Below are positions 14,263-28,213 of a DNA stretch of 28,213 nt, in pieces; within the stretch, counting starts at the first letter, position 1, and each line of letters opens with the position of its first letter. The stretch is from an uncultured Myxococcaceae bacterium (GTDB lineage Bacteria > Myxococcota_A > Polyangia > Polyangiales > Ga0077539): positions 23,586 to 51,798 of the forward strand of contig CAYUSB010000004.1 in NCBI GenBank assembly GCA_964447205.1. The letters are read 5' to 3'. Under the pieces are notes generated by a model that saw only the letters and a list, made by a program, of their open reading frames with translations, was not told where the DNA came from and made no database searches. Position numbers and translations under genes: made by a program.

Positions 14263-14529
14263 TCACCCGTGTCGGCCCTTCACCGTGGCGATGGTGAGCA
14301 CCAGCAGGAGGGTCACGAAGTTGGCGCCCACGATGGCGCTGTCGCGGCGGAGCAGCCCGTATCCCAGCCACAGGGCGATGCCCACCGCCAGCATCGTCAG
14401 GGAGGACCACGAGAAGTCCTTCGCGCTGCGCGACTGCACGGTCTTCCAGGCTTGCGGCACCCATGCGCCGGTGGTGACGGTGGCGGCGACAAACCCGAGG
14501 GACAACACGAGGGACTCGCTGGTGTGCAT
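14263..14529 (-). CDS. SemiSWEET/PQ-loop-like 3-TM mini-membrane protein
   Basis: The 88-aa product from the ATG at 14529 has three hydrophobic helices and a PQ motif in helix 1 (GAWVPQAWKT). Its size and topology are typical of bacterial SemiSWEET/PQ-loop proteins. It ends 40 nt upstream of the WD40 gene on the same strand. Confidence 0.55.
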   Translation of the reverse strand: MHTSESLVLSLGFVAATVTTGAWVPQAWKTVQSRSAKDFSWSSLTMLAVGIALWLGYGLLRRDSAIVGANFVTLLLVLTIATVKGRHG

Positions 14530-14598
14530 GGCAGAGGGCGGGTGTAGCACTCTCCCGCCAGAGGTCATTGGGGCCCTGTCGGGACAGACGAGAGATCC

Positions 14599-14904
14599 TC
14601 AGGGGCTCTTCCCGCGCGCCTTCGCGTGCGCGCGCCGCACGATGAACCACACGACCCAGAGGGCCACGGACGCCACGATCCACGGCCCCGAGCGCAGGGC
14701 CACCGCGTGCCACACCGCGAACCAGAAGAGTGCCGCGACCGCGACGCGCAGCACGAAGCGCCTGAAGTCCGCCGGGCCGCTCGCGTCGTTCGGAGGCGAG
14801 GCGGGCCCGGTCGGCGCGGCCCCCACCCCCCCGCCCACGCCCTCGCTCCGCGGGGGCGGGGGCCGGGGGGTGGGGGCCGCGCCATCCGTCTCCCGCCGCA
14901 ACAA
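14599..14904 (-). CDS. Small hypothetical protein with 2 C-terminal TM helices
   Basis: 101-aa ORF with a Pro/Gly-rich N-terminus, two hydrophobic helices (FVLRVAVAALFWFAVWHAVAL, WIVASVALWVVWFIV) and a basic tail. Strongly GC3-biased codons. Overlapping ORFs in other frames look like junk. Confidence 0.4.
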   Translation of the reverse strand: MLRRETDGAAPTPRPPPPRSEGVGGGVGAAPTGPASPPNDASGPADFRRFVLRVAVAALFWFAVWHAVALRSGPWIVASVALWVVWFIVRRAHAKARGKSP

Positions 14905-14943
14905 CGGACTCCAACCCCGTGAACGGTTACGGGAGGGTCGTGA

Positions 14944-15827
14944 TCAGTGTGGGTCGGCCGACTTGGGCGGCGTCACGGCCAGCACCTCGTCGGCGTTCGC
15001 GGCGGTCACGGCGGCCATCAGCCAGGCGTCGAGCTGCGGCATCGCCGTGGTGGCTTCGATCTGCGTGCGTTGGGCTTCGGTGAGGGTGATGCCCCGCGCG
15101 CCGAGGAGGGCGAAGATGGAGTGACGCACGCCCATGCGCTCGCCCTCAAGCTTGCCCTCGCGTTTGCCCTCGCGCATGCCCTCAAGCTTGCCGTCGCGCT
15201 CTGCCTCTGCGCGGACCTCGTCGCCAGCCTCGGGCAGGATCCTGAGGAGCTTTCGGGTCATCTCGGTCTTGAGGCGACGCTGGGCCTCTTCGTCCCGGTA
15301 GAGGGCAGCGTACTTTTCGGTGCTCTCCTGGTCCGGGGAGGTGTTGTACCACGTGGAAGACCCAGGCGGGGCCCTTGACCTCCACGGCCCAGTCCAGAAA
15401 CTCGGCCAGCGCGGCCCCCGATCGGGCGACGAGAAAGGGCAGGAGCTCGATCTCCAGGGGCAGGGCGTTGGCCGCGATCCACAGCAGGTCGAAGGGGCGC
15501 AGGCCCAGTTGCCAGATGCCGGGCCCGAGCGGGCGGAGGGTGAGCAGACCCGCCGCGTCGTCGTCGGTGACCCAGCGAGGGAGGGCGGCCGACACGATCC
15601 GACAGGCGTAGTCGCGGGCGTCGTGGGTCGCCGGGGGCTTTTCGGGCGCGTCGCGGGCCTGCTCCAACTGGCGGGTGAAGCGTGCCTGACGGCGCAGCTC
15701 GGCCCGGGCGAGGGCGGGGCGGTCGGTGTGATCGCCCGGCATCTTGAGCTCTGTCGTCGCATCGAGGCGCAACCGACGCCACGGCAGCGGCAGGTGGACA
15801 AGCCCTGGCGCGTCGAGCACGCGCATC
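14944..15827 (-). pseudogene. Rpn/YhgA-like (DUF4351 C-terminal) gene, frameshifted and lacking a recognisable N-terminal PD-(D/E)XK nuclease domain
   Basis: The C-terminal frame (track ORF 14944..15801) ends with ...ERDGKLEGMREGKREGKLEGERMG..ALLGARGITLTEAQRTQIEA...LDAWL. This is very similar to the EG-repeat plus DUF4351 tail of E. coli RpnA-E/YhgA-like proteins. The upstream frame (track ORF 15182..16933, region from MRVLD at 15827) continues the protein. The two frames join only through a 1-nt frameshift near 15349-15354 (..KGPAW / YNTSPDQ..). Confidence 0.5.
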
Positions 15828-15839
15828 ACCCCGTCCGGC

Positions 15840-16003
15840 GCTAGAGCGCCGACCGGAAAGTCTCCCGTCGCCGCGCTTCCGATCCGCGTCGCCTCGCTGC
15901 GTTGCGGTGTCTCGACGGGCATTGAGCCCGTCTTCGCCCCCGCGCCTGGCGACGCTTGCGTCTCGTTGCGCAGCTCGGTCCGACTTTCCGGTCGGCGCTC
16001 TAG
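15840..16003. repeat. Perfect 22-bp inverted repeat pair (ctagagcgccgaccggaaagtc at 15840-15861, reverse complement at 15982-16003) enclosing 120 bp
   Basis: Direct reading: the two arms are exact reverse complements and the match stops abruptly at both ends. The structure sits 13 nt upstream of the Rpn-like ATG at 15827. Confidence 0.8.
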
Positions 16004-16242
16004 AAACCCCACCGGGACCTCCACCGGAACCTCGAACGCCACGCACGACCCCGACGACACGGCGGTCTCCGAGGCCATCACCTCCTTCGCGATCTGATCC
16101 GCTTGACCCATCGAGGGATGCGCGCGCTCAGCCCGCGGTTCCGCCCCTGTCAACCGCAGCCAGTGGGACCGCGGCGCTTCGTCTTTGGACACCGTCGGAG
16201 CCCCCCCTTGTGTGCGGCCGCGGTTGTGGTCCACTCGACGCC

Positions 16243-16810
16243 ATGCGAACGCACGCGTGTGTCTCCCTCGTGGCGCTGGTGCTTGCGGCGGCATCGCCTG
16301 CCGCTGCGGAGTGCGACCCGACCGTGATCGCCGGTCTCCTCGCCCGCGCCGAACGTGCCGAACGCCAGCACGCCCTGGGTCGGGCCATGGCGATTCGTAC
16401 CGACCTGCTGGCGTGTTCGTCGGGCCCGCACGCGGCCTCCAACCGCGCGGCCTTGTCGCAGGCGTACGCCTCGTTGGGCGACTACGCCCGCGCCGCCGAC
16501 CTCGCTGGTGGCCACCGAGTGCGGACGCGTCCCCCTGCCTCCTCCGGAGGGGGCGACCCGGGAGGCCTTCGATCGGTGGGTGGTCGATGTCCTGACGCCC
16601 TGGGTTCAGTATCGCGCGCAGTGTCTTGAGGTCGCCGATCGGCACTTCACGGAGGTGATCGGGCTGGAAGTCGTGCAGTGGCAGATCGCCGCCGCCGCGC
16701 GCCTTGCCGAGGAGAATTGGTTTTTCGCGCAGGCCATTCGTACGTCGCCCGTGCCCCCGGACGTGCGTCGTAACCCCGACCTGGTGGACGCTTGGAACCT
16801 GATGAAGTGA
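16243..16810 (+). CDS. Secreted helical-repeat (TPR-like) protein interrupted by a +1 frameshift near 16520-16555
   Basis: The ATG at 16243 gives signal peptide MRTHACVSLVALVLAAASPAAAE, then helical ..ALSQAYASLGDYARAADLA. That frame soon degenerates into Arg/Gly junk. The adjacent frame (track ORF 16355, tail) reads through ..PPPEGATREAFDRWVVDVLTPWVQYRAQCLEVADRHFTEV..AAARLAEENWFFAQAIRTSP..LMK to a stop at 16810. The junction lies in a ccccc / ggggg homopolymer region. Confidence 0.45.
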
Positions 16811-16913
16811 ACGCGCCCTCCTGGAGCGGCTACGCCAGCGAGCCGGAGTACCGGTCCAGACCCCTCCGCCTCCTGAAGCCTCTCGCAGCGCAGCCACGTC
16901 GGGCTCGTCCGGG

Positions 16914-17540
16914 TCAGTTGGAGACGCCCGCATCGACCACGCCCGCCTGGAGCCCCGCGGCCCGTACGATGGCCCCGACCGCTTCGGCGACCGCCCGACG
17001 CAGCGACGGATCGGGGGCGTCGACGCGGACCACGACGTTCATGGCCCCGACGGGGATGGGGTCGACCGGGTCGAGGCCGGGCCACGGGCCTTCGTAGAAG
17101 AAGAGGTCGAGTCGGAGCCCGTGGGGCGGGTCGAGCACCTCCCGCGTCGGGGCCGCCGCGGTGTACGGAACCTGCGGGTCGTACCCGGGGTTGTGCACCA
17201 CCCGGCCGCCGTGCTGGTGGCTCCAGCGCATGCCGAGCTCGGGGCGCTCCTCGATGGTTAACACCCGACGGCCCGCATCCGCCAACGACGGAAACCTCGC
17301 CCCGAGCCCCACCACCTCGGCCACGATGCGGCGGGCGAGGGGGACGTACACCCGATGACGCGGCCCCCAACGCGCGCCCATCGGCGGCACCGCGACCTCA
17401 CCGCCCGAGACGAGGTTGGGCATGATCTCCGGCAGACGCGGCGGGGACGAGTCCGCGACGACCGCGGCAGGGGGGGACGGGCGTGCACATCCGCCCACGA
17501 GGCCGAGGAGCGCAACGACCCTGACGATGCCTGCACCCAT
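16914..17540 (-). CDS. Hypothetical lipoprotein
   Basis: The ATG at 17540 gives MGAGIVRVVALLGLVGGC with lipobox LVGGC, followed by a ~190-aa soluble domain of unknown family. Confidence 0.55.
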   Translation of the reverse strand: MGAGIVRVVALLGLVGGCARPSPPAAVVADSSPPRLPEIMPNLVSGGEVAVPPMGARWGPRHRVYVPLARRIVAEVVGLGARFPSLADAGRRVLTIEERPELGMRWSHQHGGRVVHNPGYDPQVPYTAAAPTREVLDPPHGLRLDLFFYEGPWPGLDPVDPIPVGAMNVVVRVDAPDPSLRRAVAEAVGAIVRAAGLQAGVVDAGVSN

Positions 17541-17632
17541 TCCCTGTGGACTGAACGAACCCACCCCGCGCGTCAAGGCGACCTCGGAGACACTCCGGGG
17601 CGCCCGCGCATGACGTTCGCGGCTGCGTTAGA

Positions 17633-19444
17633 ATGGCGGCCATGCTGATCCTGCGGCTCGGGATGCTCATGCTGCTGCTCCTCGGGATCGGGTGCAGCCG
17701 GGGCGACGAGGGGACCCTTCTCGGCGACCCCTGGACCGAGTACGACGCGAGCCTCTGGGACGACGACGACCCCTTTCCCCAGCCGCCCATCGGGGGCGAG
17801 GACGAGTCGCCCTTTCCCCCCGACCCCGACGCCCAGGTCCCCGAGCCCCCCGAGGGCGAGCCCTGGCCCGACGACGCCGGCGAACCCCCACCCCCGCCCG
17901 ACCCCGGCTCCGAACCCGAGCCCGACGCAGGCCCCGACCCGGGCGACGCAGGGGTCGTTCTGCCCCCGCAGGACGGCGGCCCGCCTCCGCCTCCGCCCGC
18001 CAACTGTCGCACCATGGCCGGGCCCCTCACGTGGTCGTGCAACGGGCCCATCCAGGGCCAGCACTGCGTGGCCATCACCGAGCCCCTCGACCCGCACGGG
18101 TGGGCCGACAACCACCTCTGCAGCGCCATCGAGATGGGCCTGCGGTGGTCGCACGCGGGCCCCGTCGCCGGGATGCGCTGCACCCCCATCACCGAACCCG
18201 CCGACCCCAACGGTTGGACCGACAACTTCCTTTGCCTCCCGAACGACAGCCCCTTCACCCTCCAGTGGAGCGTGGCCGGTCCCATCCCAGGCCGGGTCTG
18301 CCACGCCTGGGTCGAACCCTCCGACCCCCACACCTGGACCGACAACCACCTCTGCCTCTGGTACACCGAACCCATCGCCACCCCGCCCCCGCCGCCTCCG
18401 CCCACGGGCGAGCCTCCCCCGCGGTTTCAGGTGGTCTTCTCGCAGCGCCCTGAGGGCAACGGGCGCGACCCGACCCTCGAGTCCACCCTCCTGGAGATGA
18501 TCGGTCGGGCCCTCTCAGGCTCGCGGGTGCGGGTGGCCATGTACAACTTCACCCGGTCCAACGTGGCCCAGGCCCTCATCGCTGCCCACCGCCGCGGAGT
18601 CGACGTGCGGGTGGTGCTCGACGGCGACGCCCACCTCCTGGCCACCTCGGTCGTTCCCGCCCTGATCACGGGGCTGGGACGAAACCGGGTGACCTCGTGC
18701 GGGGCCCCGGGCACGGCCTGCCTCGGGACCGGGATCATGCACCACAAGACCTTCCTCTTCTCCGCCCTCAACGACGGGTCCCGGAGCGTGGTGGTTCAGA
18801 CCTCGCACAATCTCACGGCGGCACAGCTCCGGCGCCACAACGACGCCCTGATCATCCGCGGAGACAGCCGACTCTTCGCGGCCTACGAGCGCACCTTCGA
18901 GGACCAGCGCCGCGACATCGTTCGGTCCAACTACTATCGTATCCAGGACGGCCACTTCCGCACCCGGGCGTACTTCTTCCCGCGGCCCGCGGGCGACACC
19001 ATGGTGTCGATCGTCAACAACGTGGACTGTTCGGACGGGGGCCGCATCCGCGTGGCCATGGCCATCTTCGCCAACGCCCGCCTGGAGGTGGCCCGGGCCC
19101 TCGCAGGGCGCCAACAGGCAGGGTGCACCGTCGAGGCCGTGATCGGCAGCGCAGGCATCGCCCCGGGCCGGGACGTCCTCGCGACCCTGCGCGAGATGGG
19201 GGTCGGGGTGACCCTGTACCCCCTGCGGTCGGGGTGGGCCCTGCAGTCGAAGTACCTCCTCATCGACGCGCGCTACGCAGGCTCGACGGCCCCGCGGCGG
19301 CTGGTCTTTACGGGCTCGCACAACTGGTCGGGCCCCGCCCTGCGCACCAACGACGAGACCCTCCTGCGCATCGACAACGCCGGCGTCTACAACGCCTACC
19401 TCTCCAACTGGAACGCTGTCCGCTCCTCCGCCACCCGCCCCTGA
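17633..19444 (+). CDS. Phospholipase D-superfamily (HKD) lipoprotein with N-terminal triple Cys/Trp repeat
   Basis: Lipobox LLLGIGC is followed by an acidic Pro-rich linker, then three tandem ~38-aa repeats (W-S-x-x-G-P-x-x-G-x-x-C-x-x-I/V-x-E-P-x-D-P-x-G/T-W-x-D-N-x-L-C). A poly-Pro linker leads to a PLD-like domain with a first HKD-like motif HHKTFLF...SHN. The second motif is QSKYLLID...GSHNWS, with Gln where the catalytic His should be. Confidence 0.8.
   Translation: MAAMLILRLGMLMLLLLGIGCSRGDEGTLLGDPWTEYDASLWDDDDPFPQPPIGGEDESPFPPDPDAQVPEPPEGEPWPDDAGEPPPPPDPGSEPEPDAGPDPGDAGVVLPPQDGGPPPPPPANCRTMAGPLTWSCNGPIQGQHCVAITEPLDPHGWADNHLCSAIEMGLRWSHAGPVAGMRCTPITEPADPNGWTDNFLCLPNDSPFTLQWSVAGPIPGRVCHAWVEPSDPHTWTDNHLCLWYTEPIATPPPPPPPTGEPPPRFQVVFSQRPEGNGRDPTLESTLLEMIGRALSGSRVRVAMYNFTRSNVAQALIAAHRRGVDVRVVLDGDAHLLATSVVPALITGLGRNRVTSCGAPGTACLGTGIMHHKTFLFSALNDGSRSVVVQTSHNLTAAQLRRHNDALIIRGDSRLFAAYERTFEDQRRDIVRSNYYRIQDGHFRTRAYFFPRPAGDTMVSIVNNVDCSDGGRIRVAMAIFANARLEVARALAGRQQAGCTVEAVIGSAGIAPGRDVLATLREMGVGVTLYPLRSGWALQSKYLLIDARYAGSTAPRRLVFTGSHNWSGPALRTNDETLLRIDNAGVYNAYLSNWNAVRSSATRP
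18027..18374. repeat. Three tandem ~114-120-nt coding repeats
   Basis: DNA and protein repeat units at 18027-18140, 18141-18260 and 18261-18374. Confidence 0.7.
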
Positions 19445-19457
19445 CGGACCCTGCGGG

Positions 19458-20717
19458 CTACAGGGCGGCGCGGTCGAGGTCGAAGAGGGACAGGACGGTT
19501 TTGGTCCCGCGGGCGTCCTTCTTCCAGAGCAGGGCGAGGGTGTCGCCCGCCGCGGAGAGCCCGATGATCCGCGGGGCCCGGTAGGTGCAACACTGGGGGT
19601 CGTCGGCGAGGAGGGTCCGCACGATCTCGGGGCCCGCGTCGCGCCAGAGAAACACGGCGACCCCGTCGGTGATGGCCAGGTCGTCGTGACCGATGCGGGC
19701 GGCCAGGGAGGTCTCCCACAGGAGCTCGTGCTCGAAGCTCCGCATCCCGACCGTCGGGGGCGGAGGCACGCTCTGGCTGTGGGTGTGCCGCGCCGAGCGG
19801 TCGTTGTGGTCGTGGCCGTCGGAGGCGACGCGGGCGATCAGGCCGTCGAGGAAGTCCTGGTCCCAACGGGTGCGGGCCCGGGCCCGGAGAGAGGCGGCCC
19901 GACGCTGCCGGGCGTCGCCCGCCGAGGCGAGGGACACCGCGGGGCCCGGGCCCACCCGAAACCCGTACCGCGGGGCCCCGGCCACCCACATCCCCCGAGG
20001 GGCGGGCGCGAGGGCCAACCCGAAGGGCCAGCGGAGGTGCCCGGACGGAGCCTCGGCCCCTGGCTCGAACCACGACAGGCCGGCGATGAGGCCCGGGTCG
20101 GCGCAGAGCACGTAGAGGGTCCCGTCGTCGCCGAAGGCGTGGGCGTACTGGTCGACGTCGAGGGGCTCGAACCACTGCTCGCGTACGGCCCCGTCGGGCA
20201 GGGCGATGTGCATGAGGGCGCTGCGCTCACCGCTGCCGCAGACCCGCACCACGAGGCCCGACCCGTCCCGGGAGAAGGCCAGGGTCGAGGCCGCCCGCGC
20301 CTGAGCGTTGCGGGTCACGGCCCCGTACTCCGACACCCTGGCCCGGAGGGGGTCGGTCGTGAGGTCGCGGGGGCCGACGTGGATGACCCCGCGGCGCTCC
20401 TGCTCCTCCCACACGAGCTCGGCCACGGCCCACTGTTGGCCGTCCGCCGACCAGGTGACGTGTTGCAGGGGCCTGCGATCGGCGGCGGGCATGGCCACCG
20501 CGGTGGCCCCGTCAGCGAGGGACACGAAGTCGAGCTGTTGTCGGCTCCAGGGTCCGTGCAGGATGGCCGCCGTGGCCCCGTCGGGGGCGAGGGCCACCTC
20601 CCCGCCGTGGGCGATGTCGAGGTTGCTCCGCAGCCGGGCCGCGGGATGCAGGTCGAAGGGGACCTTGGGGCGGGGGGCCATCGGGCCGGGAGGGTACCAT
20701 GGCCCCCGTGGGCGCAT
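19458..20717 (-). CDS. Cytoplasmic beta-propeller-like hypothetical protein, start uncertain
   Basis: Only the C-terminal ~410 codons of the 579-aa track ORF are protein-like (LAFSRDGSGLVVRV, TLYVLCADPG blade-like segments, a DGHDHND His/Asp cluster). The N-terminal part is antisense junk over the next gene. Candidate starts are 20678, 20717 and 20760. The stop lies 14 nt after the convergent PLD stop. Confidence 0.55.
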   Translation of the reverse strand: MRPRGPWYPPGPMAPRPKVPFDLHPAARLRSNLDIAHGGEVALAPDGATAAILHGPWSRQQLDFVSLADGATAVAMPAADRRPLQHVTWSADGQQWAVAELVWEEQERRGVIHVGPRDLTTDPLRARVSEYGAVTRNAQARAASTLAFSRDGSGLVVRVCGSGERSALMHIALPDGAVREQWFEPLDVDQYAHAFGDDGTLYVLCADPGLIAGLSWFEPGAEAPSGHLRWPFGLALAPAPRGMWVAGAPRYGFRVGPGPAVSLASAGDARQRRAASLRARARTRWDQDFLDGLIARVASDGHDHNDRSARHTHSQSVPPPPTVGMRSFEHELLWETSLAARIGHDDLAITDGVAVFLWRDAGPEIVRTLLADDPQCCTYRAPRIIGLSAAGDTLALLWKKDARGTKTVLSLFDLDRAAL

Positions 20718-20828
20718 TGGCAGGTCGTCCGAAGTCCTTGGCGCCCCGCCCGAAGCGCCCATGACCCCGGCGGGGCTATCTCTCTCCCTGCCCACGACGG
20801 GCCCACACCGCACGAGAGATCCCCGACC

Positions 20829-21389
20829 ATGCGCACCCGCTTCGCCATCGCCGCCCGCACCCTGATCGTCAGCCTCGCCGCCCTGTCCTTCCAGGGATGC
20901 GCCCTCAGCCCCGACGAGGCCCTCGACTTCGGCGACGAGACCGTCGCACAGTCGGTGGCCTCCCGGCGTGAGCCCGGCCTCGACGTCACCGTACGCACCA
21001 CCATGGTCCCCACCGGAATCCCCACCTACGGGTACAACCCCCAAAGCCCCGTGATCACGGTGCAGCTCCGGGTGACCGACAGCACCCTGCGGCAGCGTCA
21101 CCCGCGCTTCGATGGGTTCGAGCGGCCCTTCGCCCTCGTGCCGGGGGCGGCGGGAGGGGGCGTGAGGTGGGTGAGGGTTCCGTTGGTGTTTCGGCACACC
21201 ACGCGGACGGGGTACTACGGCCAGACCCCGGTGGACGTGTACGAGCTCGGCCCGAGCCGCCTCGCCGACCTCGCCGACCTCGACAGGGTCGAGTCCCTCG
21301 GGGTGGCCGTCGGCCTCGACACCAACATCGGCACCCTCTGGGCCCAGGACCCGGGACAGAACTACCGCCCCGTTCCGCTCCCCCGCTGA
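20829..21389 (+). CDS. Hypothetical lipoprotein
   Basis: The ATG at 20829 gives MRTRFAIAARTLIVSLAALSFQGC, a signal peptide with Cys at the cleavage region. The product is 186 aa. Its stop TGA overlaps the next ATG (ATGA at 21387-21391). Confidence 0.55.
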   Translation: MRTRFAIAARTLIVSLAALSFQGCALSPDEALDFGDETVAQSVASRREPGLDVTVRTTMVPTGIPTYGYNPQSPVITVQLRVTDSTLRQRHPRFDGFERPFALVPGAAGGGVRWVRVPLVFRHTTRTGYYGQTPVDVYELGPSRLADLADLDRVESLGVAVGLDTNIGTLWAQDPGQNYRPVPLPR

Positions 21390-22174
21390 TGCTCGACGTC
21401 GACGCCGTCCCTGTCTCCGCCTTCGGTCTGGCCGACGACCTGGAGCCCTTCCACTCGGACTGGCACCAGCACCGCCGCCACCAGATCCTGTACGCCTCGG
21501 GCGGCGTCATTGAGCTCCGGGTGGGCGATCGCCGCTGGCTCCTGCCGCCGCAGAAGGCCGCGTGGATCACGGCCGACGTCCTGCACACGGCCTCGTCGCG
21601 TACGGGAGCCCTCCTGCGTACGGTGTACCTCGACCCCGCCCTGGTGACCCGCGGCCCCACGTGGCAGTGCCGGGTGTTCGCGGTGACCCCCCTGGCCCGC
21701 GAAATGCTGCTCGGGGCCATGCGTTGGGGCCCGGAGGGGGCCCGCGACGAGCCCCTGGCCACCGCGTATTTTACCGCCCTCGGGGGCCTCGCCCGGGAGT
21801 GGGCCGAGGACGACCTCGGGCTGCACCTGCCCGTGTCGCGCACCCCCGAGCTGGAGCGGGCCATGCAATGGGCCCTCGACCACCTCGACGAGCCCATCTC
21901 CCTGGAGGGAGCGGCCCGGGCGGCCCGGTCGAGCGTTCGGACATTGGCCCGGCGCTTCGAGGAGGAGGCCCAGACCACCTGGCGGGCGTATGTTCAGACG
22001 GCCCGGATGATCCGGGCGATGGAGCGCCTGGGCGAGCCCGACACCCGCGTAACCGACGTGGCCTTCTCGGTAGGGTTTCGCAGCCATGGGGCCTTCAGCG
22101 AGGCCTTCCGGGCGTTTGTGGGCGAGACCCCGACGGCGTACCGCACCCGGGCTCTCGCGCGCCGCTCCGGGTGA
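21389..22174 (+). CDS. AraC-family transcriptional regulator with N-terminal cupin sensor domain
   Basis: HSDWHQHRRHQILYASGGVIELRVGDRRW cupin segment plus a C-terminal double HTH (VRTLARRFEEEAQTTWRAYVQTARMIRAMERL...VAFSVGFRSHGAFSEAFRAFVGETP). The start is moved to the ATG at 21389. The upstream part of track ORF 21167 is Arg-rich. Confidence 0.85.
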   Translation: MLDVDAVPVSAFGLADDLEPFHSDWHQHRRHQILYASGGVIELRVGDRRWLLPPQKAAWITADVLHTASSRTGALLRTVYLDPALVTRGPTWQCRVFAVTPLAREMLLGAMRWGPEGARDEPLATAYFTALGGLAREWAEDDLGLHLPVSRTPELERAMQWALDHLDEPISLEGAARAARSSVRTLARRFEEEAQTTWRAYVQTARMIRAMERLGEPDTRVTDVAFSVGFRSHGAFSEAFRAFVGETPTAYRTRALARRSG

Positions 22175-22261
22175 AGGCGCCTCCCCCGTCCCCCGACGGG
22201 CAGAACGGTCTGGGGCCTTCTGGACGCCCCGCCCCCCCCCCGGGTAGACGCTGCCTCCGCA

Positions 22262-22538
22262 ATGCAACGAACCCTCCTCTGCGCGGCGGTCCCGGTCCTG
22301 GCCCTCTGCTTCGCCGCCTGCGGCGGCTCGGCCAATTTCGCCCAGTCTCTCAACGCCCTCCTGGTCCCCGGGAGCAGCCCCGAGCCGATGGCCGACGCGC
22401 CCCCCCACAGGCTACGCGGTCCCTCCGCCCGTGACGGCCTCGCCCGCAGGCTACAGCGCGCCCCCGCCCGTGAACGATCCCGGGTTCGAGGCGGAGGCCC
22501 CTCCGCCCGTGGTGAACCCGGGGTCACGCGGTCGTTAG
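22262..22538 (+). CDS. Small Pro-rich lipoprotein interrupted by a frameshift at a C7 homopolymer
   Basis: MQRTLLCAAVPVLALCFAACGGS has lipobox FAAC. After ~45 codons the frame turns Arg-rich, while the +1 frame reads PPTGYAVPPPVTASPAGYSAPPPVNDPGFEAEAPPPVVNP to TAG at 22536-22538. The switch point is the ccccccc run at 22392-22398. Confidence 0.4.
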
Positions 22539-22870
22539 GGGGTCGGTGTCGTCGGAGCCGCGGCAGGGGTCGGGGTCGGGGCAGGGGTCGGGGTGGGAGC
22601 CGCTGCAGGGGCGTCGGCGACGGCTGCAGCTCCGCCGTCTCGCAGGGCCACATTGGGGGGCGGGCCCCCGTACACCGCGGCCACGCCTCCGTGTTGGACG
22701 CGCTCGCACCCGGCGCCGCCGAGGGCCCCGCCGAGGGCCAAGGCTGCGAGTGCTGCTGTGGCGCCCCGAGAGGCCGCAGGACGAGCCGTGTCGGCCTGAC
22801 AGAAGGGACACACGGGATGCGGCCGGATGTGCCGCGCACACCGGGAGCAAGGGGTGAGGGCGTCGCGCAT
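22535..22870 (-). CDS. Small zinc-ribbon / TM / Pro-Thr-tail protein (anti-sigma-factor-like topology)
   Basis: From the ATG at 22870 the product reads MRDALTPCSRCARHIRPHPVCPFCQ, a CxxC-x9-CxxC zinc ribbon. It is followed by a hydrophobic segment ATAALAALALGGALGGAG and a PT-rich tail (APAAAPTPTPAPTPTPAAAPTTPTP). It is the last gene of the minus-strand operon, and its stop overlaps the convergent stop of the preceding + gene. Confidence 0.5.
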   Translation of the reverse strand: MRDALTPCSRCARHIRPHPVCPFCQADTARPAASRGATAALAALALGGALGGAGCERVQHGGVAAVYGGPPPNVALRDGGAAAVADAPAAAPTPTPAPTPTPAAAPTTPTP

Positions 22871-22925
22871 CCAGGGACGGTACAACACCACCGCGGACGG
22901 CTGAAAGAGGCTCCGGGGCCGGGAC

Positions 22926-23378
22926 CTATCCCTCGGGCCGAAACTCCATCGGGACGCTGTACTCCGCCCCGCTCATCACGCCCTCCAGGCGCAGGCCCGT
23001 GAGGCGCCGCTCCAGGCAGCGGAGAAAACTCTCCGCCCCGTCGATGCCCGAGGCGTGTCCCTCCACCACCCGCCCCCCTGGGCCCACCTGGATGCGCAGG
23101 GTGACCGTGCCCTGGAGGTTGGGGTGCTGGCGCCGGGCGACCGTGTAGCAGGTCAGGAAGCCCTCGCGGCGGGCCTCCAGGGCGCGCTGGAGGGGGTCGA
23201 GGGGACTCGAGGCCTCGGGCCGCTCCTCGGGGCTCTCCGCGTCTCCCGCTGGCCGACGCACGGGTCGCTCCTGAAGCTCTGGAGCCGGGCGTTGCGGTCG
23301 GGGTTGTGTCGCACCCCCTGCGCCGATCAGGAGCAGGGCGTACGCCAGAAAGGTGGCGGGCCGTCGCATGGCCCGCAT
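22926..23378 (-). CDS. Small secreted protein with a two-Cys C-terminal domain (TonB-C-like pattern)
   Basis: The ATG at 23378 gives MRAMRRPATFLAYALLLIGAGGATQP (signal peptide), with GAAGGG 6-11 nt upstream. The C-terminal ~75 aa (FLTCYTV..GTVTLRIQVGPGGRVVEGHASG..FLRCLERRL) is similar to the periplasmic tail of the pseudokinase. The start lies 1 nt after the SctJ-like stop. Confidence 0.55.
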   Translation of the reverse strand: MRAMRRPATFLAYALLLIGAGGATQPRPQRPAPELQERPVRRPAGDAESPEERPEASSPLDPLQRALEARREGFLTCYTVARRQHPNLQGTVTLRIQVGPGGRVVEGHASGIDGAESFLRCLERRLTGLRLEGVMSGAEYSVPMEFRPEG

Positions 23379-23379
23379 C

Positions 23380-24129
23380 CTAGCCCTTCGGGCGTGTGGG
23401 CGCAGCCCCACGGGACCTGCGTCGTCGCGACCCCAGGAGGATGGCCCCCGACCCGAGGGCTACGTTGGTCGCGAGGAGCAGGGTGAGGGCGCGGCGGAGG
23501 GGTTCGGCCGAGGCGGGGGCGACGGCGAAGGGGCCCACGTGCAGGAGGCCCGGGGGCGGCGGGGACGGGGCCGCGGTGGTGACGAAGAGCGAGACGTGCT
23601 CGGGGGACAGCCCGCGCACCCCGTCGGCCACGAGGCGACGTACGGCCTCGCGGTCGAGGGGGGAGCCGGGGCGGAGGTGCAGGGCCACCGCGGCCCGCCG
23701 TGGGGGCAGGGCGAGGGGTTCGTCGAGCCGGGGCAGGGGCTCTTCGGGCAGGTGAACCCGGGCCCACAGCACCCCGTTCAGCCGTCGCAGGGTCAGGGCC
23801 AGCTCGTCGCCGAGGGCGCGATCGAGCCGGGCCCTCTCCGCGGCGAGGCCTTCCAACACGGGCCGGGCAGGCGTCTGGGCGAACCCCCCCGGGCTCGGTC
23901 CCTCTGCGCGCAGGGTCTCGACGGCCCGTGCCACCTCCTCGGGGCCGACGGCCACCCGCCACCCGACGCCCCGCGATGAAGCCGCCCGGGAGGCCGAAAC
24001 CCCCGCGGCCTCGAGCCGACCGACTACCCGCAGGCTCTCGGCCTCGTCCACCCCGTCGAGCACGGCCACCTCGCCGCAGCCCGCCCCGAGGGCCCCGAGG
24101 GTCGCGAGGGCTAGAACCCGAAGCCCCAC
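23380..24129 (-). CDS. SctJ/YscJ-FliF family-like ring lipoprotein (orphan)
   Basis: The GTG at 24129 gives (M)GLRVLALATLGALGAGC (lipobox LGAGC). The segment LDGVDEAESLRVVGRLEAAGVSAS...GVGWRVAVGPEEVARAVETLRAEGPSPGGF matches the YscJ_FliF N-terminal domain pattern (LsE.EAn.i...L...gI.a.k....gGw.l.Vpe.d.arA.elLr..GlPr.gf). A second domain and a C-terminal TM (LTLLLATNVALGSGAILLG) with a basic tail follow. The 249-aa size is typical of SctJ. There is no ATG, so a GTG start is assumed. The start lies inside the 3' end of the upstream kinase gene. Confidence 0.55.
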   Translation of the reverse strand: MGLRVLALATLGALGAGCGEVAVLDGVDEAESLRVVGRLEAAGVSASRAASSRGVGWRVAVGPEEVARAVETLRAEGPSPGGFAQTPARPVLEGLAAERARLDRALGDELALTLRRLNGVLWARVHLPEEPLPRLDEPLALPPRRAAVALHLRPGSPLDREAVRRLVADGVRGLSPEHVSLFVTTAAPSPPPPGLLHVGPFAVAPASAEPLRRALTLLLATNVALGSGAILLGSRRRRSRGAAPTRPKG

Positions 24130-25979
24130 GACAGGCCGATGCGGGGCCCCCCGAAGGCCCGCCACGAGAGCGAGCGCACGACGTTGCTCACGCACGATTT
24201 CACCCCCGGCGACCCGTTGGCCACGGTGACCCCCATGGCCCGCCCCGTCCCCGCGATGGCGATGCGCACCTGAACCTGCCGGGCGCTCCCGTCGCCGAGG
24301 CACCCGGCGAAGCGCGACAGGCTGGCGTTGAGGGGGCGGGTGATCTCGGCGTCGTTGAGGGTCCCGCCTCCGGGGCCGCTCCCGCCGAAGTTGTAGTCCA
24401 CGGCCTGGGCCATGGCGGCCTCGTAACTCATGCCCCCGTGGCCGCCTCCGCCGCCTCCGCCGCCGCCCGCGCGCCGGGCCGAGGGGGGAGGCGGGGGCAG
24501 GAGGATGATGCTGGAGGTCTGCACCCGCAGCTCGCCCCGTTGGATGAGCTGGTCGATCTCCGCGGCGCTCCGCTGGCGTTTGGCCCCGGGGCCGACGGTG
24601 ATCCAGTACACCCCCCCGAGGAGCCCGAGAGACAGGACGCTGGCCACGGCCACGATGAGCTTCGACCGGCTGGCCACCCCGTGCTCGGCCAGGGCCTCCT
24701 CGGTGGCGGCCCGGCGCTGGGATCCCTGGCGCTGCTCGCGGGCGGTCTCGACAAACTCGCGGTACTGGGGCCAGTCGAGGAGCTTGCGTTTGTCGGCCGT
24801 GTCCATGTTGGACACGAGGTCGGTCTCGGCCACCTCGCCCCGCACGATGGCCGCGATGAGCTCGCGGGCCGTGAGGGGGCCGTGGTCGAGGCCTCCGTGG
24901 GCGTACATCCAGCGGTCGGCGTCGTCGCGGGTGACGGCCCGCAGGAGGGTCCCGAGGTCGGCGTCGGAGGCCCGCGGGGCCACGAGGTCGGGCGAGGAGG
25001 CCGCCCCCATGGGGTCGACGGAGAGGTCGAACTCCACGGGGATCTCGACCCGGGCCGCCCCGGGGGGCATCGGGGGGGCCCCGGCGAGGTCAAACTCGAC
25101 GGGGATCTCCTCGTCGTCACGGACGGGGGAGACGGCGGGGCCCAGAAGGGCCGCGAAGGCCTGGCGGAAGGCTCCGACGGAGGGGAAGCGGTCGACGGCC
25201 TTGGGGGCGAGGCAGTTGTCGAGGATGGCGTCGAATGCGGCGGGCAGGTCGGGGTTGAGCGACGAGGGGGCCACCTCGGGATTGGGGCGGCGCCCCGTGA
25301 CGAGCTCGTGCAGGACCACCCCGAGGGAGTACACGTCGCTCTGGGCGCTCGGCATGGCCCCGTTGCGCACCTCGGGGGCGACGTAGTGGCCCGGGACGGC
25401 GTTGGACACCACCAGGGGGGTGAGGAGCCCGAGCCCGGCCAGGCGCACCCGCTCGCCCTCGATGCGCACGAGGCTCGGGGCCACCCCTCCGTGGGCCATC
25501 GTGCGGTGCACGATCCCGAGGAGGTAGGCCACCCGGTCGACGTAGGGGAAGGCCTCTTCGAGGGTGTAGTAGGCCCCGGCCCGGCGCAGGACCTCGAGGC
25601 GGTCGCTCAGGGCCACCTCGCCGAGGGGCTCGGTGGCCACGCACAGGGCGGAGCCTTCGGGGTGGGGCAGGACGAAGGTGCCGAAGGGGGCCACGAGGTC
25701 GCGGTGGGCGATCGGGGCCGCCGCCCGAACGGCCCGGCGGGTCATCTCGAGCTGGGCGTCGGTGAGGGCCCCGGGGGCCATCGACCACACGGCGATGGGG
25801 CGCCCGGTCTTCTGGTCGGTGGCGTGAAAGATGTCGATGTCGCCGAGGCGTTGGGCGTGGCGGTCGACCTGGAAGCGCCCGCCGATGACGGTCCCGGTCT
25901 GGACAGAGGCCGCGGTGGGCGTCGGGGTGGCGGGCGGAGCGGGAGAGGCCATTGGGGGGGCGCAGGATGGTACCTGCAT
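24111..25979 (-). CDS. Bitopic transmembrane pseudokinase (Ser/Thr-kinase fold, degenerate catalytic motifs) with periplasmic two-Cys domain
   Basis: Only the C-terminal 623 codons of the 1175-aa track ORF are real; the rest is antisense to glyS. The kinase fold is recognisable (IGGRFQV Gly-loop remnant, YVAPEV, SDVYSLGVVLHELVTG). However the VAIK Lys is replaced (IAVWSM), the catalytic loop reads HRTMAHGGVAPS instead of HRDxKxxN, and DFG reads GLG. A duplicated EIPVEFDL motif, a TM helix (LIVAVASVLSLGLLGGVYWITV), a poly-Gly linker and a C-terminal domain with 2 Cys follow. The product ends WGFGF. Confidence 0.75.
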   Translation of the reverse strand: MQVPSCAPPMASPAPPATPTPTAASVQTGTVIGGRFQVDRHAQRLGDIDIFHATDQKTGRPIAVWSMAPGALTDAQLEMTRRAVRAAAPIAHRDLVAPFGTFVLPHPEGSALCVATEPLGEVALSDRLEVLRRAGAYYTLEEAFPYVDRVAYLLGIVHRTMAHGGVAPSLVRIEGERVRLAGLGLLTPLVVSNAVPGHYVAPEVRNGAMPSAQSDVYSLGVVLHELVTGRRPNPEVAPSSLNPDLPAAFDAILDNCLAPKAVDRFPSVGAFRQAFAALLGPAVSPVRDDEEIPVEFDLAGAPPMPPGAARVEIPVEFDLSVDPMGAASSPDLVAPRASDADLGTLLRAVTRDDADRWMYAHGGLDHGPLTARELIAAIVRGEVAETDLVSNMDTADKRKLLDWPQYREFVETAREQRQGSQRRAATEEALAEHGVASRSKLIVAVASVLSLGLLGGVYWITVGPGAKRQRSAAEIDQLIQRGELRVQTSSIILLPPPPPSARRAGGGGGGGGGHGGMSYEAAMAQAVDYNFGGSGPGGGTLNDAEITRPLNASLSRFAGCLGDGSARQVQVRIAIAGTGRAMGVTVANGSPGVKSCVSNVVRSLSWRAFGGPRIGLSWGFGF

Positions 25980-26072
25980 CCGTCGGGGCGCAGCAAGGGT
26001 GCAGCGCGCGGGTGGCTTTACGCGCCGCGGCGGGGCTGCTACCAGTGCCGACCTGCGAGGGATAGAGAGCGA
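25980..26072. promoter_or_regulatory. Divergent intergenic region between the pseudokinase operon and glyS
   Basis: 93-bp gap between divergent start codons (25979 on the minus strand, 26073 on the plus strand). Confidence 0.3.
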
Positions 26073-28205
26073 ATGACATCGACGCTGTTGCTGGAGGTCG
26101 GGTGCGAAGAGCTGCCGACGTCGTTCTTGGAGGATGCGATGGGGCAACTTGGGAAGAGCCTCCCCGAGGAGCTCGATCGGGTGGGGGTGGCCCACGGGGC
26201 GGTGCGGGTCCTCGGGACCCCGCGTCGCGTGGCCGTGGTGGTCGAGGAGGTGGTCGCCGAGATCGCCCCCCGCGAGGAGGAACTCCTCGGCCCCCCGGCT
26301 TCGGCCGCCCTCGGGCCCGACGGCGGCTGGAGCCGCGCGGCCGAAGGGTTCGCCAAGAAGAACGGCCTGTCCATCGACGCCCTGTCCCTGGTCGACACCC
26401 CCAAGGGGCGTTACCTCCGGGCCCTCAAGCGCACCCCGGGGACCTCGGCCATCGCCCTCCTGCCCGCGGCCCTCACCGCCGCCCTGCGTCGGGTGACCTT
26501 CGCCAAGTCGATGCGCTGGGCCCAGCAGGAGACGGCCTTCGGGCGGCCCGTCCAGTGGATCGTGGCCCTCCTCGACGACGCCGTGGTGCCCCTGTCCTTC
26601 GCCGGGGTGGACGCGGGGCGGGCGACGTACGGGCATCGGTTTCTGGCCCCGTCGGCGATCTCGTTGGGGCACGCGAGGGGGTACCCCGAGACCCTGCGGG
26701 CGGCGAAGGTCGAGGTCGACCCCAAGGCCCGTCGTGATTCGGCCCTGGAGGCCCTCCTGGCCGCGGCCGCGACCGAGGGCGGGATCCTGCGGCGCGACGC
26801 CTTCCTGGAGGGCGAGGTGACGGGCCTGGTCGAGTGGCCCGCGGTGGTGGTGGGGCGCTTCGAGGAGAGCTTCCTCGACCTGCCCGACGCCCTCATCGAG
26901 AGCGTGATGCGCGGCCACCAGCGCTACTTCGCCGTCGAGGGGCCGACCCCGCCCGGCGGGTCCGCCCGGCTCCTCCCGCGGTTTCTGACCGTGGTCAACA
27001 CGGCCCTCGACCCCGAGACCATCCGCCGGGGCAACGAGCGCGTGATGCGGGCCCGCCTCAACGACGCGGCCTTCTTCGTGCGCCAGGACCGCAAGCGCCC
27101 ACTGGCCGACCGGGTGTCCGACCTCGACGCCGTGGTCTTCCACGCCCGGATCGGCTCGTACGGCGACAAGGCCCGCCGCCTCGGGGCCCTCACCGCCGCC
27201 CTGGCCGCCGTGGTCGAGGCCACCCGCCCCGGGTTCGCCGCCCCCGACGAGGCCGCCCGGGCCGGGGTCCTCGCCAAGGCCGACCTCGTGACCCTGGCCG
27301 TGGGAGAGTTTCCCGAGCTCCAGGGCGAGATGGGGGGCTACTACGCCCGCCACGACGGCGAGCCCGCGGCCGTCTCCGAGGCCCTCGGGCAGCAGTACCA
27401 GCCCCGCGGGGCCGCCGACGCCGTGGCCCCCTCGGCCCTCGGGGCCCTCCTCGCCGTCGCCGACCGCCTCGACACCCTCGTGGGCTGCTTCGCGGTGGGC
27501 CTGCGCCCCACGGGGGGCGAAGACCCCTTCGGCCTGCGCCGGGCGGCCATCGGGATCCTGCGGACCCTGCTCGACCACCGCCTCCGCCTCGACCTCCGCA
27601 CCGCCGTCAGATGCGCCCTGTCCGCGTATCAAACCCACGGGGCCGACAGCCCCGCAGGCAGGGCCGTGGCCACGGAGGCGTCCCAGGCCGCTCTCACCGC
27701 CGCGGTGGTGGACTTCTGCGCCGAGCGGCTCAAGGGCCTGCTCGACGAGCGCTTCGGCCGCGACCCCGTGGCGGCGTGTATGGCCGCGGGCAAGACCGAC
27801 CCCGTCGATCTGCTTGAGCGGGTCGAGGCCGTCGACGCCTTCTGGGCCACCCCGGCCGCCCAGGACCTGGCCGTGGCCTTCAAGCGCGTCTTCAACATCT
27901 CTCGGGGGGCTCCGGCCGGAGAGGTCTCGGACGCGGTCCGGGGGTGCCTCCTCCTGCCCGCGGAGGTCGAGCTCCTCGCGGCCTACGACACGACCCGGGT
28001 GGGCCTCGGCCCCCTCCTCGCGGCCCGAGACTTTGTCGGGGCCATGGGGCTCATCGCACGCACCCTGCGGGGGCCCGTCGACCGCCTCTTCAACGAGGTG
28101 TTCGTGATGGACAAGGATCCGACCCTGCGCGACGCGCGCCTCCTCCTCCTCGGGCGCCTCGCCGACGCCGTGGGGCAGCTCGCCCGCTTCGACGCCCTGG
28201 AGTAA
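26073..28205 (+). CDS. glyS: Glycyl-tRNA synthetase beta subunit
   Basis: MTSTLLLEVGCEELPTSFL.. aligns from the N-terminus with E. coli GlyS (MSEKTFLVEIGTEELPPKAL). Further conserved blocks are LVEWPAVVVGRFEESFL, GEMGGYYARHDGE, QQYQPRGAAD and DPFGLRRAAIGILR. The start ATG is at 26073, in frame with track ORF 23700, whose upstream part is rejected. Confidence 0.9.
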   Translation: MTSTLLLEVGCEELPTSFLEDAMGQLGKSLPEELDRVGVAHGAVRVLGTPRRVAVVVEEVVAEIAPREEELLGPPASAALGPDGGWSRAAEGFAKKNGLSIDALSLVDTPKGRYLRALKRTPGTSAIALLPAALTAALRRVTFAKSMRWAQQETAFGRPVQWIVALLDDAVVPLSFAGVDAGRATYGHRFLAPSAISLGHARGYPETLRAAKVEVDPKARRDSALEALLAAAATEGGILRRDAFLEGEVTGLVEWPAVVVGRFEESFLDLPDALIESVMRGHQRYFAVEGPTPPGGSARLLPRFLTVVNTALDPETIRRGNERVMRARLNDAAFFVRQDRKRPLADRVSDLDAVVFHARIGSYGDKARRLGALTAALAAVVEATRPGFAAPDEAARAGVLAKADLVTLAVGEFPELQGEMGGYYARHDGEPAAVSEALGQQYQPRGAADAVAPSALGALLAVADRLDTLVGCFAVGLRPTGGEDPFGLRRAAIGILRTLLDHRLRLDLRTAVRCALSAYQTHGADSPAGRAVATEASQAALTAAVVDFCAERLKGLLDERFGRDPVAACMAAGKTDPVDLLERVEAVDAFWATPAAQDLAVAFKRVFNISRGAPAGEVSDAVRGCLLLPAEVELLAAYDTTRVGLGPLLAARDFVGAMGLIARTLRGPVDRLFNEVFVMDKDPTLRDARLLLLGRLADAVGQLARFDALE

Positions 28206-28213
28206 CCCTCAGC

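Follow-up and report, generated by a model that had tools for sequence, protein, structure and literature searches.

What is a perfect inverted repeat doing in the GC-rich DNA of an uncultured member of the Polyangiales? The original prediction picked out such a repeat in the stretch of 28,213 nucleotides analysed here (the window) and offered three readings of it: a MITE-like miniature element, a recombination site related to an adjacent Rpn-like gene, or a large regulatory hairpin. The repeat itself is real. A 22-nt arm, CTAGAGCGCCGACCGGAAAGTC, at 15841–15862 on the plus strand is matched by its exact reverse complement at 15982–16003 on the minus strand. The right arm lies where it had been placed, the left arm one nucleotide further in than the 15840–15861 first assigned to it, and the spacer measures 119 nt rather than exactly 120 bp. 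None of 100 dinucleotide-preserving shuffles contained a match to the repeat, even at three mismatches, and of the other perfect inverted repeats with closely spaced arms in the window, the two longest measure 19 nt and 12 nt; the repeat is far beyond chance, as had been claimed.

The two arms are the ends of a larger symmetrical structure. The unit that they span (15841–16003, without strand assignment) is 163 bp long, begins and ends with CTAG, and is an imperfect palindrome from end to end. Identity was thought to stop abruptly at both ends of the arms; this holds for the outer ends only, since imperfect complementarity runs on inward through the 119-nt core (15863–15981) and lengthens the hairpin up to a tip stem-loop at about 15916–15930. 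The resulting predicted hairpin has 59 base pairs over the whole 163-bp unit. The minus-strand transcript, for which the original prediction had proposed a folding prediction, reaches a predicted −117.9 kcal/mol (z = −9.3), and the plus strand −104.4 kcal/mol (z = −7.2). The end sequence of the element is GAGCGCCGACC after TA, that is, an arm (TA)GAGCGCCGACCGG, which can also be written (CT)AGAGCGCCGACCGGAAAGTC. Both arms are nearly invariant across the copies described below, and the core varies more between copies than the arms do.

Is the unit confined to this locus? Comparison with other genomes found dispersed copies: the 163-bp unit recurs between flanks that are unrelated in every copy, with similarity starting and stopping exactly at the CTAGs. 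Eight full copies are known, the one in the window and seven further ones (L012, L016, L006, L019, L021, L029 and L030), all exactly 163 bp long and 87–97% identical, in addition to one copy cut by a contig end, one half copy and deleted relics. Copies are spread over several Polyangiales/Myxococcales MAGs and metagenomes, with at least seven independent loci in at least five MAGs or metagenome samples, and three copies belong to the window's own sample. A scan with the 19-nt arm core, covering one genome per GTDB species, gave 20 loci, among them L006, L016 and L019 with the arms paired at the same 138-nt start-to-start offset and L005 and L012 with single arms; blastn then defined indel-free 163-bp full copies in L012, L016, L006, L019 and L021 at 87–91% identity. 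The four open translations of the element, used as queries against 5.8 billion proteins, returned two proteins only, which led to two new full copies, L029 and L030, each 97% identical to the window's. The last 138 nt of L028, the contig that encodes a close homologue of the host protein discussed below (P0002), are a further copy at 97% identity. Copies this close to the window's are thus found at separate loci: L028 and L029 belong to the window's own sample, ERZ27284381, and L030 to sample 3300056626. This points to recent activity. An exact-match scan of metagenomes with the 22-mer found three loci only: an orthologue of L019, a relic, and a related element with a different core. The detected copy number is low, at 1–3 per MAG by exact-arm search, and decay products are found as a half copy in L005 and as 27–39-bp internally deleted relics in L001, L004 and L023.

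Some of the matches lie at the margins of this family. About twelve 19-mer matches outside Myxococcota were set aside, as they consist of one arm only and appear to be fortuitous matches inside coding regions; the exception is L018, from a Planctomycetaceae MAG, where a degenerate second arm is present. L018 (6640–6778) and L022 (about 1828–1947) carry elements of roughly 120–140 bp with near-identical terminal repeats (AGAGCGCCGACCGG...) and share a core unlike the window's (CCCTG..ACAGGGAGAA). This suggests a wider family using the same ends, and the combination of the same ends with a different core hints that the cognate transposase family is widespread. In L005 (2456–2601), another small motif, CCCTTCCCCCGCCTCGGG, occurs twice after the truncated half copy, once as a hairpin; it may represent a different intergenic repeat family. 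The half copy was also considered as the end of an autonomous insertion sequence, a possibility we rejected because the DNA next to it has no coding sequence and contains further small repeats.

The element also leaves its mark on the assemblies. L032 (ENA contig k139_650099, from a separate assembly of ERZ27284381) is 100% identical to positions 15865–28213 of the window; it starts 24 nt inside the element and encodes the window's exact PLD-like protein. The 138 nt of the copy at the end of L028 correspond to k−1 for an assembly with k = 139. From contig names and lengths we infer that contigs ending with k or k−1 nt of the element reflect branching of the de Bruijn graph at a multi-copy repeat. 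The window itself might be suspected of being a mis-join across the repeat; this was rejected, as the two flanks belong to a single gene, contiguous and in frame with each other.

Which gene is this? The original prediction put the repeat immediately upstream of an Rpn-like remnant and, as its arms are translated within the open reading frame 15182..16933, took that segment to be non-coding. Third-position GC (GC3) shows a minus-strand coding frame passing through the element, and a protein search with the element-free translation recovered a family of about 300–345 aa in Polyangiales and Sorangium. The best matches, P0001 (89% identity) and P0002 (83%), each cover 100% of the query, and the alignment sets the start of the host gene at the minus-strand ATG at 16111 (MGQADQIAKEV). 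Between ...EVPVGF and LAPDGVMRV..., the window copy alone has 53 extra residues, which are absent from P0001, P0002 and the distant members of the family. The element is therefore not upstream of the gene: it lies inside the 5' coding region, in frame, after codon 36. As for the non-coding segment, the part of ORF 15182..16933 upstream of 16111 is indeed an artefact of GC-rich DNA, but the arms belong to a 53-codon in-frame insertion in a real, frameshifted gene.

This host gene (14944–16111, minus strand) is disrupted further downstream. Compared with its homologues it has a 2-nt (AT) deletion at 15334–15335, which changes CCC ATG GAC to CCC G GAC on the minus strand and shifts the frame; GC3 switches frame at about 15320–15350, and restoring AT at 15334/15335 yields an uninterrupted ORF of 389 aa. 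The host gene is now probably a pseudogene, owing to this deletion, which is separate from the insertion of the element. The deletion, seen in the assembled sequence alone, is either a real change or an assembly error. The label 'Rpn-like' fits one part of the protein: hhalign matches its last ~86 residues to the DUF4351 tail of an Rpn-family protein with a probability of 97%. The window host protein and seven homologues gave no match in Pfam and NCBIfam, and no Rpn nuclease domain was detected. A profile search of the PDB with the host family gave no match, and the sole Pfam/NCBIfam match among the host protein and the neighbouring ORFs is PLDc_2 on 17633–19444.

Several features of the surrounding DNA deserve mention. 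Just before the DUF4351-like tail of the host protein, a 12-nt tandem repeat at 15130–15201 encodes (R/K)EGK-type tetrapeptides; the window has two extra 12-nt units compared with L024, and P0001, P0002 and the window differ in the number of units. The similarity of the window to L024–L027 (88–91%; 14941–16161 of the window against 9993–11032 of L024) is limited to the host gene and about 50 bp upstream, with unrelated flanks on either side, and in L028 a 345-aa gene, similar in length, lies directly upstream of the P0002 gene. Found in different contexts in close relatives, the DUF4351-tailed gene family may exist in several copies or be mobile itself. About 60 nt downstream of the host-gene stop is a perfect 19-bp inverted repeat of G/C runs (14813–14883, arms at 14813–14831 and 14865–14883), hairpin-like and with no T-tract after it. 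On the other side of the gene, the preferred coding frame flips several times between 16112 and 16930, where GC3 lends no support to ORF 15182..16933; an ORF of 28 codons, whose start resembles a signal peptide, runs from an ATG at 16244 to 16327, and the region may hold degraded or short genes.

Homologous loci without the element show what its arrival added. Two such empty sites were found, and at each the occupied locus differs by a net 159-bp insertion at a CTAG-like site. The window reads GGG TTT [CTA G..159 nt net..CTA G]CG CCG GAC. Where the window has TTT[CTAG...CTAG]CGCC, L024 lacks the element and reads TTTCTGGCGCC (GGG TTT CTG GCG CCG GAC), and the P0002 gene in L028, likewise without the element, has GGG TTT GTC GCG CCG GAC. 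The second empty site is L031, which shares with L029 the order of an AraC-type gene, a convergent 593-aa HEAT_2 gene and a gene of ~495 aa, and lacks the 159 bp found in L029; in L029 the element has inserted at the stop codon, TAG, that ends the HEAT_2 gene. The empty-site tetranucleotides are each one base off CTAG (CTGG in L024, CTAC in L031), and we infer that the pre-insertion allele was CTAG. CTAG flanks both sides of each copy and is represented by a single CTAG-like site in the empty loci. In the window, the left CTAG (15841–15844) is a candidate target-site duplication, of either the TA within CTAG or the whole CTAG, paired with the right CTAG (16000–16003), whose minus-strand bases 16003–16001 form codon 37 of the host gene (CTA, Leu). 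Because CTAG is palindromic, a 2- or 4-nt duplication, and strictly also its existence, merges with an extension of the inverted repeat; CTAG-specific insertion is the simplest reading.

A preference for CTAG has consequences for where insertions can fall. The 28-kb window contains only four CTAGs (15841, 16000, 23380 and 24111), against about 12 expected from a Markov estimate, and two of these are the ends of the element; the other two, at 23380 and 24111, coincide with ends of listed minus-strand ORFs. Since CTAG is nearly absent from this ~72% GC DNA except at TAG stops, insertions would land mostly exactly on stop codons. Genes ending exactly at the terminal TAG were found at both ends of L012 (a Zn-dehydrogenase, whose Pfam alignment runs to the last part of the profile, and a methyltransferase), at both ends of L016 (an FHA-DUF4123 protein and a 272-aa protein), in L019/L021, where an ABC ATPase stops at the TAG of the terminal CTAG, in L028, where a 502-aa gene does the same, in L029, at the L004 relic and at the related element in L022. 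The neighbours of the other copies are dehydrogenase, methyltransferase, FHA/DUF4123, ABC ATPase, AspRS, AraC and HEAT genes, with no Rpn-like or transposase gene among these flanking genes.

The inverted repeats are thus very probably the ends of a 163-bp non-autonomous DNA transposon (MITE) of uncultured Polyangiales/Myxococcales, the first of the original readings. The element has no coding of its own, its translations being short peptides without a family match; it occurs at scattered, unrelated loci, has CTAG at its borders in every copy, and is missing from two homologous empty sites. Small size without transposase coding, terminal inverted repeats, dispersed copies and presence/absence polymorphism are the hallmarks of a MITE, and all of them are found here. 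The element is without functional tie to its host gene. In the proposed mechanism, a transposase encoded elsewhere would bind the ~20-bp ends, act in trans and insert the element at CTAG. The mobiliser would be a DDE transposase, likely of the IS630 or IS5 type, and insertion would duplicate either the central TA, in the manner of IS630/Tc1-mariner and of the IS5/IS427 group, or the whole CTAG, in the manner of the IS5 group; the duplication would restore the TAG stop codon after insertion. In the window, the element would have entered codon 37 (CTA|G) of the DUF4351-tailed gene and added 53 residues.

But which transposase would move it? We looked for one in several ways. Exact-match pattern scans of genomes and metagenomes found no autonomous element combining matching ends with a transposase gene, ~330 kb of loci contained no pair of terminal inverted repeats at IS-like spacing, and no transposase occurs among the Pfam-annotated genes of L024–L032 or the ten flanking ORFs scanned. 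A blastn search of the element against 72,556 plasmids gave chance matches only (E ≥ 0.5), and a scan of viral contigs for the arms gave none. A literature search on MITEs in myxobacteria and on IS630 in Sorangium returned nothing relevant. Any particular transposase family can be named as mobiliser only tentatively.

The target of the element is like that of elements derived from IS630 or from IS5. According to the part of PMC2170065 that cites Tenzen & Ohtsubo 1991, IS630 inserts at the TA within 5'-CTAG-3'. Like MITEs of the IS630/Tc1-mariner type, the element is small, non-coding, low-copy and dispersed, has terminal inverted repeats, and is flanked in each copy as C-TA...TA-G, as expected for a TA duplication in CTAG; unlike them, it has no IS630-family transposase with matching ends in the exact-match scans, and its ends, read after TA, were matched to those of no described insertion sequence. 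MITEPsy1 of Pseudomonas syringae, derived from the IS5-family element ISPsy2, is 100 nt long with 18-nt inverted repeats and a 4-nt CTAG/YTAA duplication (PMC3189936), and IS5/IS427-group elements make 2-bp duplications (PMC3281130). MITEPsy1 is likewise a CTAG-flanked miniature element with terminal inverted repeats of ~18–22 nt, but its ends are GGAAGGTCTGAAAAAGCC, in contrast to those given above, and the window element is 163 bp long and palindromic throughout; its ends also differ from the IS5-type ends (GGAAGGT...) of MITEPsy1 and ISPsy2 quoted in PMC3189936. The flanks C-TA|element|TA-G fit a TA duplication and a 4-nt CTAG duplication equally, and with a palindromic target the IS630, IS5/IS427-group and IS5-group/MITEPsy1 patterns look alike here. 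No new mechanism of mobility is indicated.

Two properties of the element raise the question of whether it is more than a passive passenger: its reading frames and its fold. Four frames can read into the element, of which +0, +2 and −0 are stop-free in all eight full copies and −2 in four of the eight and in the consensus; in the remaining frame on each strand the terminal TAGs read as stops. With a net length of 53 codons and these open frames, insertions in coding CTAGs need not truncate the ORF, and two in-frame insertions are indeed seen, in different frames (CTA|G in the window and CCT|AGC in L029). All four frames are open in ~6% of composition-matched shuffles; together with the one-in-three chance of a length divisible by three, this makes selection suggestive but not compelling. 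Public gene calls read through the copies in L029 (10001–10984, P0071) and L030 (10001–11128, P0072), giving element-derived protein segments; P0072 looks out of frame over much of its length and is arginine-rich after about residue 150. As to the fold, 97.9% of cells are paired in the 59-pair hairpin across the eight full copies, compared with 33–43% for slid control structures, and three pairs show compensatory changes tracing to few events: the hairpin is conserved, and the covariation proof is thin. The constant length of all full copies and the whole-unit hairpin could reflect selection for structure rather than purely selfish spread.

From these properties a bolder reading can be built, in which the element has been shaped to be harmless in translation and targeted to stop codons, may have been recruited as an RNA hairpin at 3' ends or to insulate convergent genes from each other, and is perhaps moved by an undescribed enzyme. 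It builds on a CTAG target that in this DNA amounts to the TAG stop codon, on the net 53 codons, on a consensus that is stop-free, in both orientations, in each frame that can read into it and on a hairpin of about −100 kcal/mol in all copies. We regard it as unlikely; if true, the element would insert without breaking any ORF. Insertion in frame, as seen here, is itself documented, for MITE fusions and for the Rickettsia palindromic elements (PMC10969869). The latter are similarly ~150 bp and palindromic, and insert in frame, adding a peptide without an ORF break (PMC10969869), but they belong to another phylum and are unrelated in sequence; here, most copies sit at stop codons, with a clear CTAG boundary and perfect terminal repeats.

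Long RNA hairpins at gene ends call to mind other repeat families. The ERIC elements of enterobacteria and the Correia-type elements of Neisseria are imperfect palindromes of ~100–160 bp, TA-flanked and placed at gene ends, which are co-transcribed and fold into long RNA hairpins. The whole-length hairpin predicted here at gene ends resembles them, but there is no sequence relationship, and a scan of 14500–17500 with Rfam 15 gave no match at E ≤ 1. The REP sequences have a GTAG head and a 20–40-nt unit, are strictly extragenic and lack a flanking duplication. A rival reading would make the element a palindromic repeat, REPIN/REP-like or otherwise, that owes its spread to recombination or to a non-DDE enzyme such as a RAYT/Y1 transposase and is kept as a stabiliser of mRNA 3' ends or as an insulator between genes. 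The conserved pairing with its compensated pairs, the identical length of the full copies, the position exactly between convergent genes in L012 and L016, and the lack of a DDE partner in our searches all speak for this. They have to be set against ends that consist of CTAG plus 18 nt, with 22-bp perfect terminal repeats and the same tetranucleotide on both sides, against two copies inside ORFs, against the missing T-tract, and against the very few events behind the covariation. An intrinsic terminator was rejected as well: no T-run follows the hairpin on either strand, and a scan for promoter and terminator consensus sequences found no sites. Tested against the REP/REPIN features, the element does not have their profile, and we consider such an origin improbable.

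Another reading would see the element as a module that acts at the protein level, with selection on the peptide that its 53 residues form. The net length of 3 × 53 nt, the open frames and the in-frame insertions in the window and L029 would all agree with it. However, most copies lie outside ORFs or start at stop codons, in both orientations, and the two in-frame cases use different frames and so encode unrelated peptides. The yield of the protein search, two proteins among 5.8 billion, and the frequency of open frames in shuffled sequences weigh against it too, and it appears very improbable. That the repeat is a locus-specific cis element of the Rpn-like gene, whether recombination site or regulatory hairpin, is scarcely credible: only its position inside a gene with a DUF4351-like tail speaks for it, and close (83–89% identity) and distant homologues of that gene lack the element, the other copies flank unrelated genes, and the host gene itself has no detectable Rpn nuclease domain.

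Insertion of a MITE accounts for the odd perfect hairpin and corrects the annotation of the locus: the true gene, on the minus strand, runs from 14944 to 16111 and contains a frameshift as well as a transposon insertion of 53 codons. More generally, short-read assemblies break at members of this family, and read-through of its copies can extend predicted proteins spuriously, as in P0071 and P0072. For uncultured Polyangiales, this is, by the literature searched, the first described MITE family, a new family of a well-known kind of element. It also illustrates how insertion can be tolerated: in genomes of very high GC content, an element that inserts specifically at CTAG is steered to TAG stop codons, and an element whose length is a multiple of three and whose reading frames are open is able to sit inside genes without truncating them.
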